Shown here in pieces: positions 4,538 through 43,943 of a stretch of DNA of 64,000 bases (position 1 is the first letter of the stretch; each line of letters begins with the position of its first letter). The translations under genes were made by a program, and so were the position numbers. The stretch spans positions 864,001 to 928,000 of the forward strand of contig CBDDEL010000016.1 of the NCBI GenBank assembly GCA_965226885.1, in the 5' to 3' direction. The notes beneath the pieces were generated by a model. The model did no database searches. It worked only from the letters and a program-made list of their open reading frames with translations, and was not told the DNA's origin. This DNA comes from Opitutales bacterium. Its GTDB lineage: Bacteria; Verrucomicrobiota; Verrucomicrobiia; Opitutales; UBA2987.

Positions 4538-4622
4538 GCCCAGGTGGTGGAATTGGTAGACACGCATGATTCAGGTTCATGTGCCGCGAGGTGTGGGGGT
4601 TCGAGTCCCCCCCTGGGCACCA
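4538..4622 (+). tRNA. tRNA-Leu (anticodon CAG)
   Basis: Acceptor stem GCCCAGG/CCTGGGC, anticodon arm CATGA-TTCAGGT-TCATG, long variable arm, GGTTCGAGTCC T-loop and encoded CCA. Confidence 0.96.
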
Positions 4623-19693: not shown

Positions 19694-19770
19694 TGGTCGG
19701 GACGACTGGATTCGAACCAGCGGCATCTTGCTCCCAAAGCAAGCACTCTACCAGGCTGAGCTACGTCCCG
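19694..19770 (-). tRNA. tRNA-Pro (anticodon TGG)
   Basis: The minus strand reads CGGGACGTAGCTCAGCCTGGTAGAGTG-CTTGC-TTTGGGA-GCAAG-...GGTTCGAATCC...GTCCCGACCA. Confidence 0.96.
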
Positions 19771-37806: not shown

Positions 37807-39318
37807 ATGAACCAACATAGCTCCAGCACCAGCGATTTTTTATACGATAAAATTGCTGGGGAAATCAGATCCCTTATTGAAAACGGAACCCTCTCGCCGG
37901 GGGACAAGCTGCCCTCCGTGCGCAAGCTATCCGGTCAAAAAAAAGTCAGCATTTCAACCATCTTGCAGGCTTATATTGCCCTTGAGAGTGAAAAACTGAT
38001 AGAGGCCCGCCCCCAGAGCGGCTACTATGTTTCCACCGGGTCCCTGCTTCGTTTTCCCGAGCCTTTGGAGCTTTTCCCTTCGGACCCGCCGAGAACGGTC
38101 GAGGTCGCCGATAACGTGATGGAACTTTTCAAGGCAAGCGGTAAGCCCGATATAATTCCTCTTGGAGTCAGCTACACCATGCCCGAATTGATTTCCAATC
38201 AGAAACTGGCTAAAATGGTGAGTAGGGTCAGCCGGGATCACAGCGAATTTTTCAGCCGTTACACGTTTCAGGCGGCGGACCCGGAATTCGCGCGCCAAAT
38301 CAGCATCCGCTCATACGATTATGGATGCAACCTGCACCCCGATGAAATTATCGCCACATTTGGCTGCACCGAGGCTTTTAACCTCTGTTTGCGGGCGGTG
38401 GCCAGCGCCGGAGACGTCATTGCGGTGGAATCGCCCACCTATTTTGGCATTCTGGAAATCATCGAGAGCCTCAATATGAAGACGGTCTCCATCTGCACCG
38501 ACCCGAAAAACGGCGTCTGCCTGCAATCCCTTTCCGATACCCTCGAAAACCACGATGTCAAAGCCTGCGTGCTCATGCCCAATTTTCAAAACCCGCTCGG
38601 ATTCCGCATGAGCGCCGAACGCAAAAGAAAAGTATTCGATATCCTGGATGACTACGGAGTTCCCCTCATCGAGGACGACATTTATGGCGATTTAAATTTT
38701 CGGGGAAACCGCCCTCAACCCTTTAAAGCTTATGATGAGAATGGATCGGTTATGCTCTGCAGCTCTTTTTCCAAAACCCTGGCTCCGGGCCTGAGGCTGG
38801 GGTGGGTTGCCGCCGGAAAGTATCGGGACCGCATCCTGCGCCTCAAATACCTCAACACCATGGGCACCCCCGAAGCGCCCCAAAGGGCGCTGGCCGAATA
38901 CCTCAAAAGCGGGGGATATGATCGGCATCTGAGAAACCTGCGGTCCAGTTTACAGCGTCAAATATGCCAGATGTCGCAAGCCGTTTACCGCTATTTTCCG
39001 GAAGGTTCACTCGTTACCAGGCCCGAAGGGGGAAACCTCTTATGGGTGCAGCTGCCTGAAACCATCGACACGCTCGAGCTTTACCGGCGCGCCTTGCGCC
39101 ACAATATCGTATTCGCCCCCGGCGCCCTCTTCGCCGCCTGCTGTCTAAACGCCTGCATCCCCCATGATGAACCCTGCATGTTTCGCAATTGCCTGCGTCT
39201 GACCTGCGGCGCCCCCTGCGATGAAAAAGTGGAAGCGGCCCTCAAAACCCTCGGCTCCCTCGCCGCAGACATAGCCGCAGGCCTGGATTCCAGCATCAAA
39301 CCCCAAAAAGCCGGTTAA
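37807..39318 (+). CDS. MocR/GntR-family PLP-dependent transcriptional regulator
   Basis: wHTH (KLPSVRKLS..ARPQSGYYV) plus aminotransferase domain (IEDDIYG, SFSKTLAPGLRLGW). Confidence 0.93.
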   Translation: MNQHSSSTSDFLYDKIAGEIRSLIENGTLSPGDKLPSVRKLSGQKKVSISTILQAYIALESEKLIEARPQSGYYVSTGSLLRFPEPLELFPSDPPRTVEVADNVMELFKASGKPDIIPLGVSYTMPELISNQKLAKMVSRVSRDHSEFFSRYTFQAADPEFARQISIRSYDYGCNLHPDEIIATFGCTEAFNLCLRAVASAGDVIAVESPTYFGILEIIESLNMKTVSICTDPKNGVCLQSLSDTLENHDVKACVLMPNFQNPLGFRMSAERKRKVFDILDDYGVPLIEDDIYGDLNFRGNRPQPFKAYDENGSVMLCSSFSKTLAPGLRLGWVAAGKYRDRILRLKYLNTMGTPEAPQRALAEYLKSGGYDRHLRNLRSSLQRQICQMSQAVYRYFPEGSLVTRPEGGNLLWVQLPETIDTLELYRRALRHNIVFAPGALFAACCLNACIPHDEPCMFRNCLRLTCGAPCDEKVEAALKTLGSLAADIAAGLDSSIKPQKAG

Positions 39319-39403
39319 CCTCTACACGATGTCAACGTGTAGCTGATCTTCGCAATGGGATTTGGGGACTTCTACAGTATCCATGCGTGAATTGGCCGAG
39401 GGG

Positions 39404-39487
39404 TGGTAACGCCGCCAACATGCGCAGCTTTGTAGTGGAGGCGAAGCCACAACGGAAAAGCTGTCTCCATGATTGGCCTTGTTAAAT
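39404..39487 (-). mobile_element. Integron attC recombination site
   Basis: Minus strand ATTTAAC-AAGGC-CAATCATG...hairpin...CATGTTG-GCGGC-GTT. R'' and R' boxes and an L''/L' pair with one extrahelical T, starting 2 nt after the tautomerase stop. Confidence 0.8.
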
Positions 39488-39489
39488 TT

Positions 39490-39879
39490 TTATACTTCAA
39501 CTTTATAACTCAATGTCAATTCGTCCCCAGGCATGCCACGAATACCCCAGTTTTCCTTTGGAGTTTCAAATATGGTTATCTCAATATCTTGAGATAAAAT
39601 ACCCGCATGAGCATAAATATTTGAATAAATTCCGCGTATGAGTGCCTTCTTTGCTTCGGTAGTCCGCCCTTCAAACATGGACACTTCAATTATGATGTAA
39701 TTCTCGGACCGATCACCTGGATAAACGAAATCATCCGGATTCAAAGAAATAGATCTATGAAACTTCCTCTCTGGCGGATACTCTAGAGCAGACATTACCG
39801 CTTCATGAATGGAAGTAGAGATAGCTACCTTATTCTCATCAAGGTTTGACTTTAATCCATATATCTTAATTTGTGCCAT
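39490..39879 (-). CDS. Tautomerase-family protein (gene cassette cargo)
   Basis: Motifs MAQIKIYG, IEVSMFEGRT.EAKKAL and ITIFETPKENWGIRG. AT-richer than its neighbours. Confidence 0.88.
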   Translation of the reverse strand: MAQIKIYGLKSNLDENKVAISTSIHEAVMSALEYPPERKFHRSISLNPDDFVYPGDRSENYIIIEVSMFEGRTTEAKKALIRGIYSNIYAHAGILSQDIEITIFETPKENWGIRGMPGDELTLSYKVEV

Positions 39880-40119
39880 GCCTGATCCTCGTGGAATTTA
39901 ACATATTGTAGGCAGCGTCTACGCAACCCGTGATTAGGTAAGATAATTTTTTAGCCGAAATTTGCAAGAGAATCTGTAATTCATTGGTGGAGAAATGGCT
40001 GAATCCGTTTCCCGTAATTAACAGCCAATTTTTAATGATGCGTGGACGCTGCAAAAATTGGTACATCCTTTCCGCCAACTCACACACGAAACGAAAGAAA
40101 AATATTTTCATTTGGGGGC

Positions 40120-40148
40120 TTGACACTGAACGGGTGTTTAACTATACA
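40120..40148 (+). promoter_or_regulatory. lexA promoter with putative LexA box
   Basis: TTGACA at 40120. TGTTT-AACT-ATACA (40135-40148) resembles the verrucomicrobial TGTTC-N4-GAACA motif and overlaps the -10 element. Confidence 0.6.
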
Positions 40149-40158
40149 TTTGTGCATT

Positions 40159-40794
40159 ATGGATGAATTGACATTGCGACAGCAGGAAATTTTGGGTTAT
40201 CTTCAATTGCATATGCGGGTGCACGGGACTTGGCCGAGCTTTCGGGAGATTCAGGCCCATTTCGGGTTTCGCAGCACCAACGCCGTCATGGGGCACCTCC
40301 GCGCGCTCGAGAAAAAGGGCCATATCAGCCGTGTGCCGGGGCAGGCCCGCACCTTCCGCATCACGATGGACTTTAATGAGGAAAACCAACCCGCCGAGGC
40401 CACCGATGTGGTCGATATCCCCATCTACGGTAGCATTGCGGCCGGTTATCCGGACGGGGTCGAGCCAGGCGGGGAAATCGGCCGCCTACAGATTGATGCG
40501 GAAACGGCCGGCATCCGCCGCTCGCGCCACGCCTTCGCCCTCAAAGTGCGGGGAGACAGTATGGTCGACGCCGGCATCTTCGATGGCGACATCGTTATCA
40601 TGGAAAGACGCCCGCCCTACAACGAAGATGTGGTGGCCGCCCTCATCGACGGGGAGACGACTCTCAAGCGTTTTATACGAAAACGCGGCAAAGCCCCCTA
40701 CCTCAAAGCGGAAAACAAAGACTACCCCAAACTCCACCCGGTGGCCGAACTGATCATTCAGGGCGTGGCCAAAGCCGTCGTCCGCAATTTGTAG
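40159..40794 (+). CDS. lexA: SOS repressor LexA
   Basis: LTLRQQEIL...PSFREI HTH, AAG cleavage site, VRGDSM serine and TLKRF lysine. Confidence 0.95.
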   Translation: MDELTLRQQEILGYLQLHMRVHGTWPSFREIQAHFGFRSTNAVMGHLRALEKKGHISRVPGQARTFRITMDFNEENQPAEATDVVDIPIYGSIAAGYPDGVEPGGEIGRLQIDAETAGIRRSRHAFALKVRGDSMVDAGIFDGDIVIMERRPPYNEDVVAALIDGETTLKRFIRKRGKAPYLKAENKDYPKLHPVAELIIQGVAKAVVRNL

Positions 40795-40834
40795 TGCTGG
40801 GCACGATGCGAGATAGTGGATACTTGATGCAAGC

Positions 40835-40923
40835 TTGTTGATTAGTTGGGTACAAGGTTTGTTGATTAGTTGGGTACAAGGAGGTGCAGTCAGGGAGGTG
40901 CAGTCAGGGAGGTGCAGTCAGGG
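40835..40923. repeat. Adjacent tandem repeats (24-bp period x2, 14-bp x3)
   Basis: TTGTTGATTAGTTGGGTACAAGG twice, then GGAGGTGCAGTCAG three times, with no spacers. Confidence 0.9.
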
Positions 40924-41022
40924 CATGGTTTTTCAGGGTCGATTCCTGAAACCCGACACCTGACACCCGAAACCTTTTTTTCCGCGTCCCCGATCCGGCC
41001 GATATATAAAAAGTGTACAGAC

Positions 41023-41054
41023 AAAAGGCCCGGTCTCCTTGCGGAGGCCGGGCC
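41023..41054 (-). terminator. Rho-independent terminator of the putative ncRNA (may also terminate lexA)
   Basis: Minus strand GGCCCGGCCTCC-GCAA-GGAGACCGGGCC-TTTTGT. Confidence 0.85.
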
Positions 41055-41059
41055 CCTTG

Positions 41060-41930
41060 AAAGTTTGGAATGTCGTTCGCCACACGCTCTTTCCAAGTGC
41101 TGGCATTGGGCGCTTTCGATTGCTCGGAAGCTGCCAGCTCCCCGACGCTATTCCACGCGGCAACACGCGATTGTCGGTCTCATAGCAGGACCGTCGCCCC
41201 AATTGCTCCGGACGATTCTCAAGTGAGGCCTCTCGGCAGGGTTCGACCCGTGTCTGCCGACACCGGTGCGCCCTACTTGGAGCAAAACGCCCTGCAATAG
41301 GCTTTCTGCTCCTTCTGCCCGAGGGTCGGCCCGCAGATGGCTCCGCGGCGTTGGCCCCCGGTTACGGGTCTGACCTCTTAGCTCTCAGGATACTTTTCGC
41401 ATTGCAGAGCGGTCGATGCGGTTTTTCACACCGCCCGCACTTTTTCGGAATTCACCAGGCTCAGCTTGCACTGATCCTCGTGCTCTCCCCGCCTCAAGGT
41501 GGCTTTTTCGTGCCTCCGGCGCTTGGCTTTCGGAGGCCTTGCGGCGAGTTTGCCCTCGCCAGTTCACCTTGATCGGACTGGTCTTCATGGTAGCATCCAC
41601 GGCCCGTTGCCCGGGTCACCTTGTCGTCCTTCCTGATGATGCAAGCATCCTCAAAACGAACTCACTCAGCTCGCCGCTGGAACCATTATTACAGCGGCTC
41701 ACTGCCGCGTTCCGCATTTCGTCAGGGCGCGAACCCCGGCGGCGGAACGGGTGGAATATGCCTCTTTCCCCATCGGCGAATCTCCCGAAAGAGTTCCTGT
41801 GATGGTTCCGAAGGAGTCAGGCCCACCAGTTCTGGCCCGACTTTTGCCCGGTTTCTCAACCGGGAGTATCTTGAGACTCTCCACCGCCTTGGTCCGAAAA
41901 CCCCGGCGGCGAATTGCCATATTTCTTCCA
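41060..41930 (-). ncRNA. Candidate large (~870 nt) highly structured non-coding RNA, class unassigned
   Basis: No credible CDS. Bounded by a promoter and a terminator. Dense local and nested helices with GNRA and UUCG loops on the minus strand. Confidence 0.7.
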
Positions 41931-41972
41931 AAGAACTGCCCATAAGATTGGACAGAAAAAAAGACTTGTCAA
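41926..41972 (-). promoter_or_regulatory. Sigma70-type promoter plus boxA-like element upstream of the putative ncRNA
   Basis: TTGACA (41972-41967), a 16-nt spacer, CAATCT, then GTTCTTTGGAA resembling rrn boxA. Confidence 0.55.
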
Positions 41973-42235
41973 ATAAAAAGTGTCCTAAAACACTGCAAAA
42001 GAACAAGTTGTGAATAAGTCGACTTTTCCATGTGAGCGTTTTGCGAACAACTGCGCATCCCTCCCAAACAGAGTCATTTAGAATTGAGGACAATCGCCCA
42101 CCCCCTATCGTGAATAACGCTTTAAACTTACCATCGCAAAAAAAAGTTTAAGTTTTTTTTATTTTTTTATTGTTTTTCCAAACAAGGATCACGTGCCATA
42201 ATCATGAGTTTCGGGATTTTAAAAATCTTAATCCA

Positions 42236-42472
42236 ATGACCCCTTTACGATTATTACTGGTTATTTGTTTTTTCCTCGTGGCATCCGTGCCCTGGTTTTA
42301 TGTCGGGGCTTCCAGTGTTTCCGATGAGGGATTGCCGAACTGGGCTTTGCATGGATTTGTAAGCATGTTTCTTTTCGCAATTTTCATCGCTTACGCATTG
42401 AAAAAATATTGGGCCTTAATGGCAGGAGATGAAGATAATCCGCAAATAGAGAAAGAAAATAATGACGGGTGA
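42236..42472 (+). CDS. Small two-TM membrane protein accompanying the sodium:solute symporter
   Basis: Hydrophobic SVPWFY...GLPNWA segments. Overlaps the symporter start. Confidence 0.7.
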   Translation: MTPLRLLLVICFFLVASVPWFYVGASSVSDEGLPNWALHGFVSMFLFAIFIAYALKKYWALMAGDEDNPQIEKENNDG

Positions 42473-43943
42473 TGCTGCCATACTGGACCGGGGCGGCATC
42501 CTGTTCGTGGGGAGTTACCTTTTCATCCTGATCGGTTTTGGCGTTTGGGGCCGATTTGCGCGTAAGGAGAAGAGCATGGATGATTTCTACCTGGGCGGTA
42601 GGAATTTCGGGCCTTTTGTCCTTTTGATGACACTTTTTGCGACTCAATACAGTGGAAATACGTTGATAGGCTATGCGGGACGGGCCTACCGGGATGGCTT
42701 TCAATTTATCATGGCCCCCATGTTTATGATGATGGTAATCGGTGGTTACCTCTTCTACGCCCCAAAGCTTTACCGGCTTTCGGCCAAAAAAAGGTATGTC
42801 ACCACATCCGATTTTCTACAGGATCGCTTTAATTACCGTCCGTTGTCTTTATGGGCCAGCGGATTGGGCATGGTTGCGTTATGCAACTACATTTTAACCA
42901 ACCTGCTGGCCATCGGGCTTTTGGTCGAGACCGCCTCAGGTGGGCGGTTTGTCATGTGGCAGGGCATTCTCGCCTTGTCCATTATCATGGTTTTATACGA
43001 AACACTGGGCGGCATGCGCAGCGTAGCCTGGACGGACGTGGTGCAAGGGATTCTTCTATTATCCGGCTGTGTGATTATATTTATATTCCTCAACCTCCAT
43101 TTCGACTCCTACAAAATTTTATCAGTCGATGTGAAAGCCAATTATCCAACCTTTTGGGATTCTCCCAACTGGAGGGAGAAGCTTGGTTGGTTGAGCACGC
43201 TTATTATGATCGGATTGGGGATATCGGTTTATCCCCATGCGGTGCAGAGGGTTTACGCCGCCCGCAGCGAAGCGACATTACGGAGTACGCTGCAGGTGAT
43301 GGCGTTCATGCCCATCGTGACCACTTTTTTCATTATTTATGTAGGTTGGATGGGTAGCGGCCTGCTGCCCGGACTGGAGAGCGACAGGGCTGCCACTGAT
43401 CGCATTTCTCTGCACATGATCCAATTGCTGGCGGTGGAAATTCCCCAGTTCAAGATTTTCATGGTGGTCTTCCTGGCGGCAATCATCGCCGCAATCATGT
43501 CCACAGTCGATTCCGCGCTTTTGAGTCTCTCCTCTTCGATGACCAAAGATTGGTATCAATTGATTAAACCAAAAACCTCCCAGGCCCAGCTGGCCATGGT
43601 GGGCAAAATCCTTTCCTGGATTCTAATGGGCGCCATGGCTTTGCTGGCAATACAGTCCGAAAGCACCATTTTTCGTTTGCTTGAGATCAAGCTGGAATTG
43701 CTACTGCAGGTGGTTCCGGCCATATATCTGGGAGTTCATACCAAAAAATTAAGCGGCCGGGCTGTATTTGCGGGTATGGTAGTCGGGACCGTCGTTACGG
43801 TTGTGTTTTTGGTGGCCCAAAAACTGGGCGCGCCGATTCCGGCCAAACCTTTGGGTATTTACGCAGGCGTCTGGGGATTTGGCCTGAACCTGACCGTGCT
43901 GGCGGCGGTGGCAAAATTTTCACCTGCGAAATTAACTCGATAA
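42462..43943 (+). CDS. Sodium:solute symporter (PanF/PutP-like)
   Basis: Motifs DDFYLGGR, ATQYSGNTLIG, GGMRSVAWTD and AAIMSTVDS. Confidence 0.92.
   Translation: MTGDAAILDRGGILFVGSYLFILIGFGVWGRFARKEKSMDDFYLGGRNFGPFVLLMTLFATQYSGNTLIGYAGRAYRDGFQFIMAPMFMMMVIGGYLFYAPKLYRLSAKKRYVTTSDFLQDRFNYRPLSLWASGLGMVALCNYILTNLLAIGLLVETASGGRFVMWQGILALSIIMVLYETLGGMRSVAWTDVVQGILLLSGCVIIFIFLNLHFDSYKILSVDVKANYPTFWDSPNWREKLGWLSTLIMIGLGISVYPHAVQRVYAARSEATLRSTLQVMAFMPIVTTFFIIYVGWMGSGLLPGLESDRAATDRISLHMIQLLAVEIPQFKIFMVVFLAAIIAAIMSTVDSALLSLSSSMTKDWYQLIKPKTSQAQLAMVGKILSWILMGAMALLAIQSESTIFRLLEIKLELLLQVVPAIYLGVHTKKLSGRAVFAGMVVGTVVTVVFLVAQKLGAPIPAKPLGIYAGVWGFGLNLTVLAAVAKFSPAKLTR

Follow-up and report, generated by a model that had tools for sequence, protein, structure and literature searches.

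The locus and the identity of the RNA

The DNA analysed here, called the window throughout, is a stretch of 64,000 nucleotides (nt) from an Opitutales bacterium (assembly GCA_965226885.1, contig CBDDEL010000016.1, positions 864,001 to 928,000), and our subject is a large structured RNA encoded on its minus strand, in the gap between lexA (40042-40794, plus strand) and a small open reading frame (ORF) and SSF symporter gene, which begin at 42170 and 42462 respectively, also on the plus strand. This gap of 1,375 bp holds no credible protein gene, in agreement with an initial annotation made from the sequence letters, which had described about 1.4 kb without a protein-like ORF between lexA and the symporter; a Pfam search of the 8 longest ORFs overlapping the gap gave no match. 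A scan of the whole window against Rfam placed the following feature there:

41072-41871, minus strand: MISL RNA core, matching model positions 1-751 of RF03079

The match scored 367.5 bits (E 1.6e-109) against a curated gathering cut-off of 274.6 bits for this family and spans the model from end to end (751 of 751 positions), making it a full-length member; the flagged sequence is almost certainly MISL RNA. It was the sole strong RNA match in the window besides two tRNA genes (at 4538-4619 on the plus strand and 19697-19770 on the minus strand). The RNA body has a G+C content of 60%, it shares the consensus helices and invariant sequence blocks of the family, and no difference bearing on membership was found. 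MISL is reportedly a family from the supplement of Weinberg et al. 2017.

MISL, whose core measures about 800 nt, is an already catalogued large folded non-coding RNA and not a new class. The initial annotation had suggested that the RNA might belong to a new class and had proposed an Rfam comparison, noting that a strong match would remove the novelty; that comparison confirmed an RNA, at a score well beyond the family cut-off, and the suggestion of a new class falls away since this is an ordinary full-length member of RF03079, a family absent from the list of candidates drawn up then. None of the candidates that were on that list matched. A permissive Rfam rescan of positions 40800-42250, in which matches up to E <= 1 were accepted, returned MISL only, and because GOLLD, ROOL, OLE, HEARO, RNase P, tmRNA and the group I and II introns were all unmatched at that threshold, these families are excluded. 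The earlier remark that no RNase P, tmRNA, rRNA or intron hallmarks could be recognised agrees with this for RNase P, tmRNA and the introns.

A decayed or unusual protein-coding gene was also considered as the source of the signal, as ORFs of up to 130 amino acids overlap the region, although ORFs of this length are to be expected at 60% G+C. This explanation has a negligible probability: besides the lack of Pfam matches, none of 23 homologs had a reading frame that stayed open along the whole RNA (on the RNA strand the longest frames were of 71-196 amino acids), the internal alignment gaps were mostly not in threes (106 of 614 were multiples of three) and substitutions in the helices were compensatory. 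On these grounds the non-coding nature of the sequence, on which the initial annotation had asked for a check, was upheld.

Conservation of the fold

When the Rfam consensus structure was mapped onto the window it gave 175 base pairs, 159 of which are canonical in the window copy. Covariation was assessed on 18 homologs (from 18 genomes) that MAFFT had aligned without reference to structure. Under the Rfam structure 80.1% of the cells in this alignment paired compared to 64.7% in shuffled alignments, 126 of the 175 pairs showed double (compensatory) changes and the covariation score was 0.445 compared to 0.186 in shuffles. None of 500 shuffles reached the observed values on any of five measures, and sliding the pairing partners by 1-3 columns reduced the covariation score to 0.096-0.137. 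RNAalifold, run on the same alignment, independently predicted 136 pairs, 94 with double changes. The MISL consensus fold is conserved, covaries and is kept in the window copy, an outcome which answers favourably the covariation check that had been proposed for this RNA.

The Rfam consensus helices present in the window include CCCGG/CCGGG, CGTTCCGC/GCGGAACG, GCCGCTG/CAGCGGC, GCGGT/ACCGC, GGAGCAGAA/TTTTGCTCC, GGCGAG/CTCGCC and GCCTCCG/CGGAGGC, while TCAGT-GCAA-GCTGA lies inside the loop of an Rfam helix. Most of the local hairpins that had been picked out by the initial annotation coincide with Rfam helices, and one further helix that it had drawn as a nested junction, TCAAGGTG/CACCTTGA (41572-41565 with 41501-41494) enclosing two hairpins, proved well founded even though these segments are single-stranded in the Rfam consensus. 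In an alignment-free duplex test against shuffles, the segments of the enclosing helix gave a mean z of -2.67, with 13 of 18 homologs below -1.64, and the segments flanking the two enclosed hairpins formed a long duplex in every homolog despite quite different sequences. Because of this consistent duplex formation we take the three-way junction to be real; the enclosing helix is missing from the Rfam consensus:

41494-41572, minus strand: three-way-junction module, an enclosing helix (itself outside the Rfam consensus) around two Rfam hairpins

Three other proposed pairings did not hold. CAAGT/ACTTG was paired in 68% of cases and TCGGCAG/CTGCCGA in 57%, each with one double change, and both clash with well-covarying Rfam helices; the 3' pairing TTGGAA/TTCCAA is present here as a genus-specific feature which is not conserved (mean z -0.33, with 2 of 17 homologs passing).

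The transcription unit beyond the Rfam model

The sequences flanking the Rfam model were surveyed at 23 full-length MISL loci from 21 genomes, the half-length matches L014 and L019 being left out. The following features were recognised in the window:

41981-41994, minus strand: A/T-rich block CAGTGTTTTAGGAC, placed where an UP element would lie
41967-41972, minus strand: predicted -35 hexamer TTGACA
41945-41950, minus strand: predicted weak -10 hexamer CAATCT
41922-41936, minus strand: boxA-like word GTTCTTTGGAAGAAA, at or adjoining the predicted transcript start
41872-41921, minus strand: variable leader hairpin between the boxA-like word and the model start, its sequence varying and its hairpin potential judged by eye
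41020-41056, minus strand: intrinsic terminator

The promoter had been described previously as TTGACA-16-CAATCT, and it reads exactly so (41972-41967, a 16-nt spacer, then 41950-41945); the boxA-like element, the GC-rich body and the hairpin with its U-tract are likewise all present on the minus strand. In 14 of 22 loci the boxA-like word is preceded, at a distance of 36-37 nt, by a -35 hexamer with no more than one mismatch; the eight loci without one at that distance are the six loci of family f22 together with L005 and L009. Homologs have GATATT, CATATT or GATACT at the -10 position, and when the upstream regions of the homologs were stacked, -10 hexamers of the form xATAxT were seen, as was a conserved GTTTTATG-like block at about -55, so placed that the A/T-rich block of the window may act as an UP element. 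The boxA-like 15-nt word GTTCTTTGAAAGAAC, or a near variant of it, precedes the model start by 39-158 nt in 22 of the 23 loci, L015 being the exception, and in the window RF03079 begins 65 nt downstream of the word.

At the other end, the terminator (hairpin and T-run) starts about 16 nt past the end of the Rfam model and consists of a GC-rich hairpin (41056-41027) followed by a U-run (UUUU at 41026-41023). The hairpin has a predicted stability of -31.1 kcal/mol in the window and of -15.7 to -35.6 kcal/mol in the 17 loci of 17 for which downstream sequence was available. The predicted transcript is about 915 nt long (from about 41938 to about 41022).

It counts against this description that a simple consensus scan did not call the window promoter, because its -10 hexamer is weak, and that the same scan recorded the terminator just as a 5-bp sub-stem; since both signals were missed or understated, the case for them rests on conservation across the homologs. 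That conservation shows a promoter, leader word and terminator framing a predicted transcript which extends beyond the Rfam model at both ends.

An 11-mer, ATAAAAAGTGT on the plus strand, occurs past the terminator at 41006-41016 and again upstream of the -35 hexamer at 41973-41983; this may be chance in A/T-rich DNA or the trace of an old tandem arrangement.

The MISL unit in RNA libraries

Ten sequencing runs recorded as RNA, from five studies, contained 51-80% of the sampled words of positions 41000-42000. Contigs assembled from four metatranscriptome runs (four studies) were compared with positions 40400-42600, and their cover was restricted to 41032-41919: one run gave an 823-nt contig identical to the window at a word depth of 2,499, a second run gave contigs at depths of 1,356-1,757, and two runs with near relatives gave an 865-nt contig over 41032-41887 and an 822-nt contig over 41075-41875. 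None of the four runs had contig cover in 41954-42600, and in 40400-40991 there was none save for one bin in one run. Exactly the MISL unit, and not its flanks, is present in these RNA libraries. As assembled contigs do not show strand, ends or level, the covered unit and uncovered flanks are a weak hint of a discrete, abundant RNA. Together with the Rfam match, the covariation and the conserved flanks, the RNA contigs back the earlier proposal that a large structured RNA stands alone here, with a promoter, a boxA-like leader and a terminator of its own, and we consider that MISL is very probably an independent, abundant transcript. RF03079 has the Rfam type 'Gene; sRNA', and at this locus the description as a stand-alone gene fits in its own promoter geometry and terminator, its unrelated neighbours and RNA contigs limited to the unit.

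The leader word: rRNA-type boxA or DNA operator

The leader and the 16S-23S spacer of rRNA operons are the two classical places for boxA. In this genome GTTCTTTGAAA precedes the 5' end of the single 16S gene by 128 nt, and the same word recurs about 580 nt beyond the 3' end of 16S, in the 16S-23S spacer. The MISL leader word matches this word, the organism's own, at 10 of 11 positions. With up to one mismatch, the rRNA boxA word was found in the spacer in 6 of 6 MISL-bearing genomes and in the 16S leader in 4 of 6. In several families the word shared by MISL with the rRNA spacer extends to 12 bases (GTTCTTTGAAAG), and across the loci it is the 5' half GTTCTTTG, the part in common with the rRNA word, that is nearly invariant, while the 3' half is variable. 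The likeness to rRNA lies in the same word preceding a long, structured, untranslated RNA, as boxA does where it is bound by the Nus complex (NusB/NusE/NusA/NusG/SuhB). In Baniulyte et al. (10.1101/091223), that complex is described as promoting rRNA folding, as able to prevent Rho termination and as having targets beyond rRNA, and the survey of Nus targets reported there left non-coding RNAs aside.

Several observations weigh against the word acting as boxA. If it did, its sequence might be expected to vary together with the rRNA boxA across lineages, and this was tested and not found: the MISL leaders of family f22 carry the variant GTTCCTTGATAGAAC, matching at 9 of 11 positions, while the rRNA spacers of f22 retain the standard word (two f22 genomes), so the variant is not mirrored in rRNA. 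The position also differs from that in rRNA, as the promoter geometry places the MISL word at the very start of the transcript, at about +1, and the rRNA leader word of this genome lies further from a promoter-like TTGACG than the MISL word lies from its promoter. The contigs from the RNA libraries miss the word (the longest ends at 41919, 3 nt short of it). Lastly, in 14 of 22 loci the word reads as a palindrome of the form GTTC-N7-GAAC, perfect or nearly so. As a more general limit, the 11-mer GTTCTTTGRAA has 5 other matches in the genome where about 5 are expected by chance.

The GTTC-N7-GAAC palindrome is also compatible with a DNA operator, that is, a site over the transcription start to which a dimeric regulator would bind, repressing MISL. 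Its predicted place at about +1 would suit such a site, the palindrome is perfect (7-1-7) in 4 loci, and the f22 variant retains the arms even as it departs from the rRNA word. Set against this, the rRNA-like 5' half is near-invariant whereas the palindrome is broken in 8 of the 22 loci, the window included, and in several families the match to the rRNA spacer word reaches 12 bases. We regard the operator as a rather unlikely explanation, and whether the leader word acts as boxA is, on the comparison of sequences, an evenly balanced question.

The identity of the word as a LexA box was considered and rejected: the LexA box reported for this phylum has a different spacing from that of the leader word, and a scan with the LexA-box pattern gave one chance-level site far from the locus.

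A third boxA-like word, GTTCTTTGCA, is found in the 16S-23S spacer of this genome 228 nt past the 16S 3' end (G000 C16, about 258700), and similar extra boxA-like words occur in the 16S-23S spacers of genomes G019 and G032.

Two copies that evolve in concert

A second MISL locus, with the same covariance-model score, is found on a different contig (C14) of this genome, and comparison of the two loci by blastn delimited the block that they have in common:

40995-42168, minus strand: block common to the second MISL locus (G000 C14), 1,174 bp at 99.4% identity

The block runs from just past the terminator through the terminator, RNA, leader and promoter to about 200 bp upstream, and the few differences between the copies are confined to the terminator loop, the sequence past the terminator and one indel in an A-run. 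The neighbouring genes are unrelated, being lexA and the symporter here and genes for adenylosuccinate synthetase and a Mur-ligase-like protein at C14.

A sister species has both MISL loci in the same two contexts, so the duplication predates the split of the species. Its two copies are 98.1% identical to each other, and between the species the syntenic orthologs are 88-91% identical (84-91% when MISL and the flanks are taken together), against 99.4% and 98.1% within species. Because the paralogs are more alike than the syntenic orthologs, the copies are taken to be homogenised by gene conversion. The pattern indicates that the two MISL copies evolve in concert, as rrn operons do, which are likewise present in multiple copies with concerted evolution.

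Two 99.4% identical copies in unrelated contexts, within a genome rich in insertion sequences, might instead be copies of a mobile or selfish element of 1.17 kb with the RNA serving its spread. This is very improbable, as the block contains no transposase, reverse transcriptase or any Pfam-matching ORF, its ends show no terminal inverted or direct repeats other than A/T-rich chance matches, the sister species has both loci in synteny (an old duplication, with the identity of its copies due to gene conversion) and most genomes have one copy. Overall, our explanation of the window gene, in which we have high confidence, is that it is one of two nearly identical MISL genes, with a predicted transcript led by the boxA-like word.

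In 4 loci drawn from 3 families (L001 in G000 C14, L005 in G006, L007 in G014 and L013 in G019) the gene immediately upstream of MISL, and on its strand, is Mur-ligase-like, and because of this recurrence the C14 locus, on the Mur-ligase side, is suggested to be the ancestral position. Adenylosuccinate synthetase is downstream of MISL in 3 loci of one family. The Mur-ligase-like and adenylosuccinate synthetase neighbourhood is probably the ancestral position and not a functional link.

Evidence for a trans-acting RNA

No neighbour gene was universal among 41 flanking ORFs of MISL loci, and we infer that MISL is trans-acting and not a cis-regulator. Its intergenic position, and nothing more, would suit a cis-acting leader or riboswitch, or a diverged RNase P, tmRNA, 6S or signal recognition particle (SRP) RNA. 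Such readings are highly improbable: the gene has its own terminator, it points away from the symporter operon and converges with lexA, its neighbours differ between copies and between genomes, and the genome has RNase P RNA, tmRNA, 6S and SRP RNA at other loci, each scoring above its cut-off. Complementarity between MISL and the rRNA operon was at chance level, the longest stretch being 11 nt where 200 shuffles gave maxima of 10-14 (at least 11 in 135 of them).

DnaA-box-like sites upstream of MISL

Upstream of the promoter, the textbook DnaA-box 9-mer consensus fits two sites:

42009-42017, minus strand: DnaA-box-like word TTATTCACA, 81 nt upstream of the boxA-like word
42109-42117, minus strand: second DnaA-box-like word TTATTCACG, differing from the textbook consensus at one base and also found at this place in the C14 copy

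Of 22 loci, 16 have a DnaA-box-like 9-mer, oriented alike and with up to one mismatch, 79-82 nt upstream of the boxA-like word; in 11 of them it is exact. A consensus-fitting 9-mer at a fixed distance and orientation resembles the promoter-proximal boxes at which DnaA acts as a transcription factor, and may have that role here, but differs from them in that this genome has one exact box per MISL copy. Exact DnaA boxes are not enriched genome-wide (82 found compared to 139 expected), and the clusters of exact boxes in this genome are two pairs within 300 bp, neither of them at MISL. Tight linkage of MISL to dnaA was not found: the two are 156, 281 and 563 kb apart in the 3 genomes that have both on one contig, and lie on different contigs in 3 other genomes, this one included.

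Proposed production of MISL and comparison with other large RNAs

Three clues bear on how MISL is produced: the leader word resembling rRNA boxA, loci homogenised in the manner of rrn operons, and a high word depth in small metatranscriptomes of several studies. All three suggest that MISL is a stable RNA, expressed at a high level, which the rRNA transcription machinery handles. In the mechanism that we propose, a sigma-70-type promoter with the A/T-rich block and the DnaA-box-like site would start transcription, and the first ~15 transcribed bases would be a boxA, the same word as in the organism's rRNA leader and spacer, loading NusB/NusE and other Nus factors onto RNA polymerase. The Nus complex would shield the long untranslated RNA from Rho and aid its folding during transcription, as for rRNA, until the hairpin and U-run terminate the transcript. 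MISL would then accumulate as an abundant, stable, trans-acting RNA, serving as a ribonucleoprotein scaffold or as a catalytic or self-assembling RNA. A stronger form of this proposal, in which production is rRNA-style throughout (A/T block, DnaA-sensed site, Nus-recruiting boxA, gene-converted copies and very high levels) and MISL is an as yet unrecognised growth-coupled housekeeping RNA of these bacteria, catalytic or self-assembling as is becoming apparent for ROOL, GOLLD and OLE, is speculative and we consider it improbable.

The expected range of the family is the Verrucomicrobiota, while look-alikes of the LexA encoded beside it came from mixed phyla. We found MISL in 16 of 41 close relatives (in 11 above the cut-off) and in 9 of the 151 genomes of a phylum-wide sample, almost without exception from the window's own order; because of these frequencies MISL is taken to be dispensable and not essential. 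No match was found in any of the close relatives listed at <=2.0 Mb, nor in the same-genus genomes G001 and G003, and G002 has a match to the 3' half of MISL (L014) at a contig end. The misses in G001 and G003 and the half-length matches may reflect the collapse of a two-copy repeat in draft assemblies, and not absence.

Genome G008 has one low-scoring full-length copy (L015) without the boxA-like word and with a divergent 5' domain, and a second match (L019) to the 3' half only, at model positions 389-750. L015 and L019, like L014 in G002, may be decaying copies or assembly breaks.

MISL is among the largest bacterial RNAs without a function. It is in the same size class as ROOL, GOLLD and OLE, with many multistem junctions as they have, although there is no sequence or structure match between them at E <= 1 and no prophage or tRNA association at the MISL loci examined. 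ROOL and GOLLD are described as large, complex-folded RNAs in the main text of Weinberg et al. 2017 (PMC5737381), from which MISL is absent. Cryo-EM structures in which GOLLD, ROOL and a third large RNA form complexes of RNA alone have been reported (10.1101/2024.12.08.627333), with no mention of MISL in the available text of that preprint, and the Ribonanza paper used an Rfam MISL sequence for chemical mapping only. Other papers under this name deal, by their titles, with the Salmonella gene misL. Our literature search found no functional study of MISL and no link between boxA and MISL in print, and the supplement of Weinberg et al. 2017 may describe either. The boxA match, the concerted evolution of the copies, the extra helix and the RNA contigs limited to the unit were likewise not found in the literature searched, some of the flanking features possibly being held in that supplement. 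As an RNA class the MISL of the window adds nothing, and its value is in the details of production around the gene; a revised Rfam model could also gain from including the additional junction helix together with the conserved leader and terminator.

Other observations in the window and genome

The stretch from the MISL terminator to the lexA stop codon contains three short tandem arrays at 40835-40975 (24 nt x 2.0, 14 nt x 3.1 and 7 nt x 4.4), all of them outside the block common to both MISL copies. In the LexA ORF as listed the DNA-binding domain begins only at residue 40, and the GTG at 40042 probably lies ahead of the true start. Upstream of lexA, 37807-39879 holds genes for a GntR-aminotransferase fusion regulator and a tautomerase-family protein. 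A motif scan found more than 40 nearly identical copies of a repeat genome-wide, one of them near window position 2879. The genome is unusually rich in insertion sequences, and about 70 identical ORFs of 270 amino acids with weak Bac_DnaA-domain matches were read as IstB-like helper ATPases of an insertion sequence.

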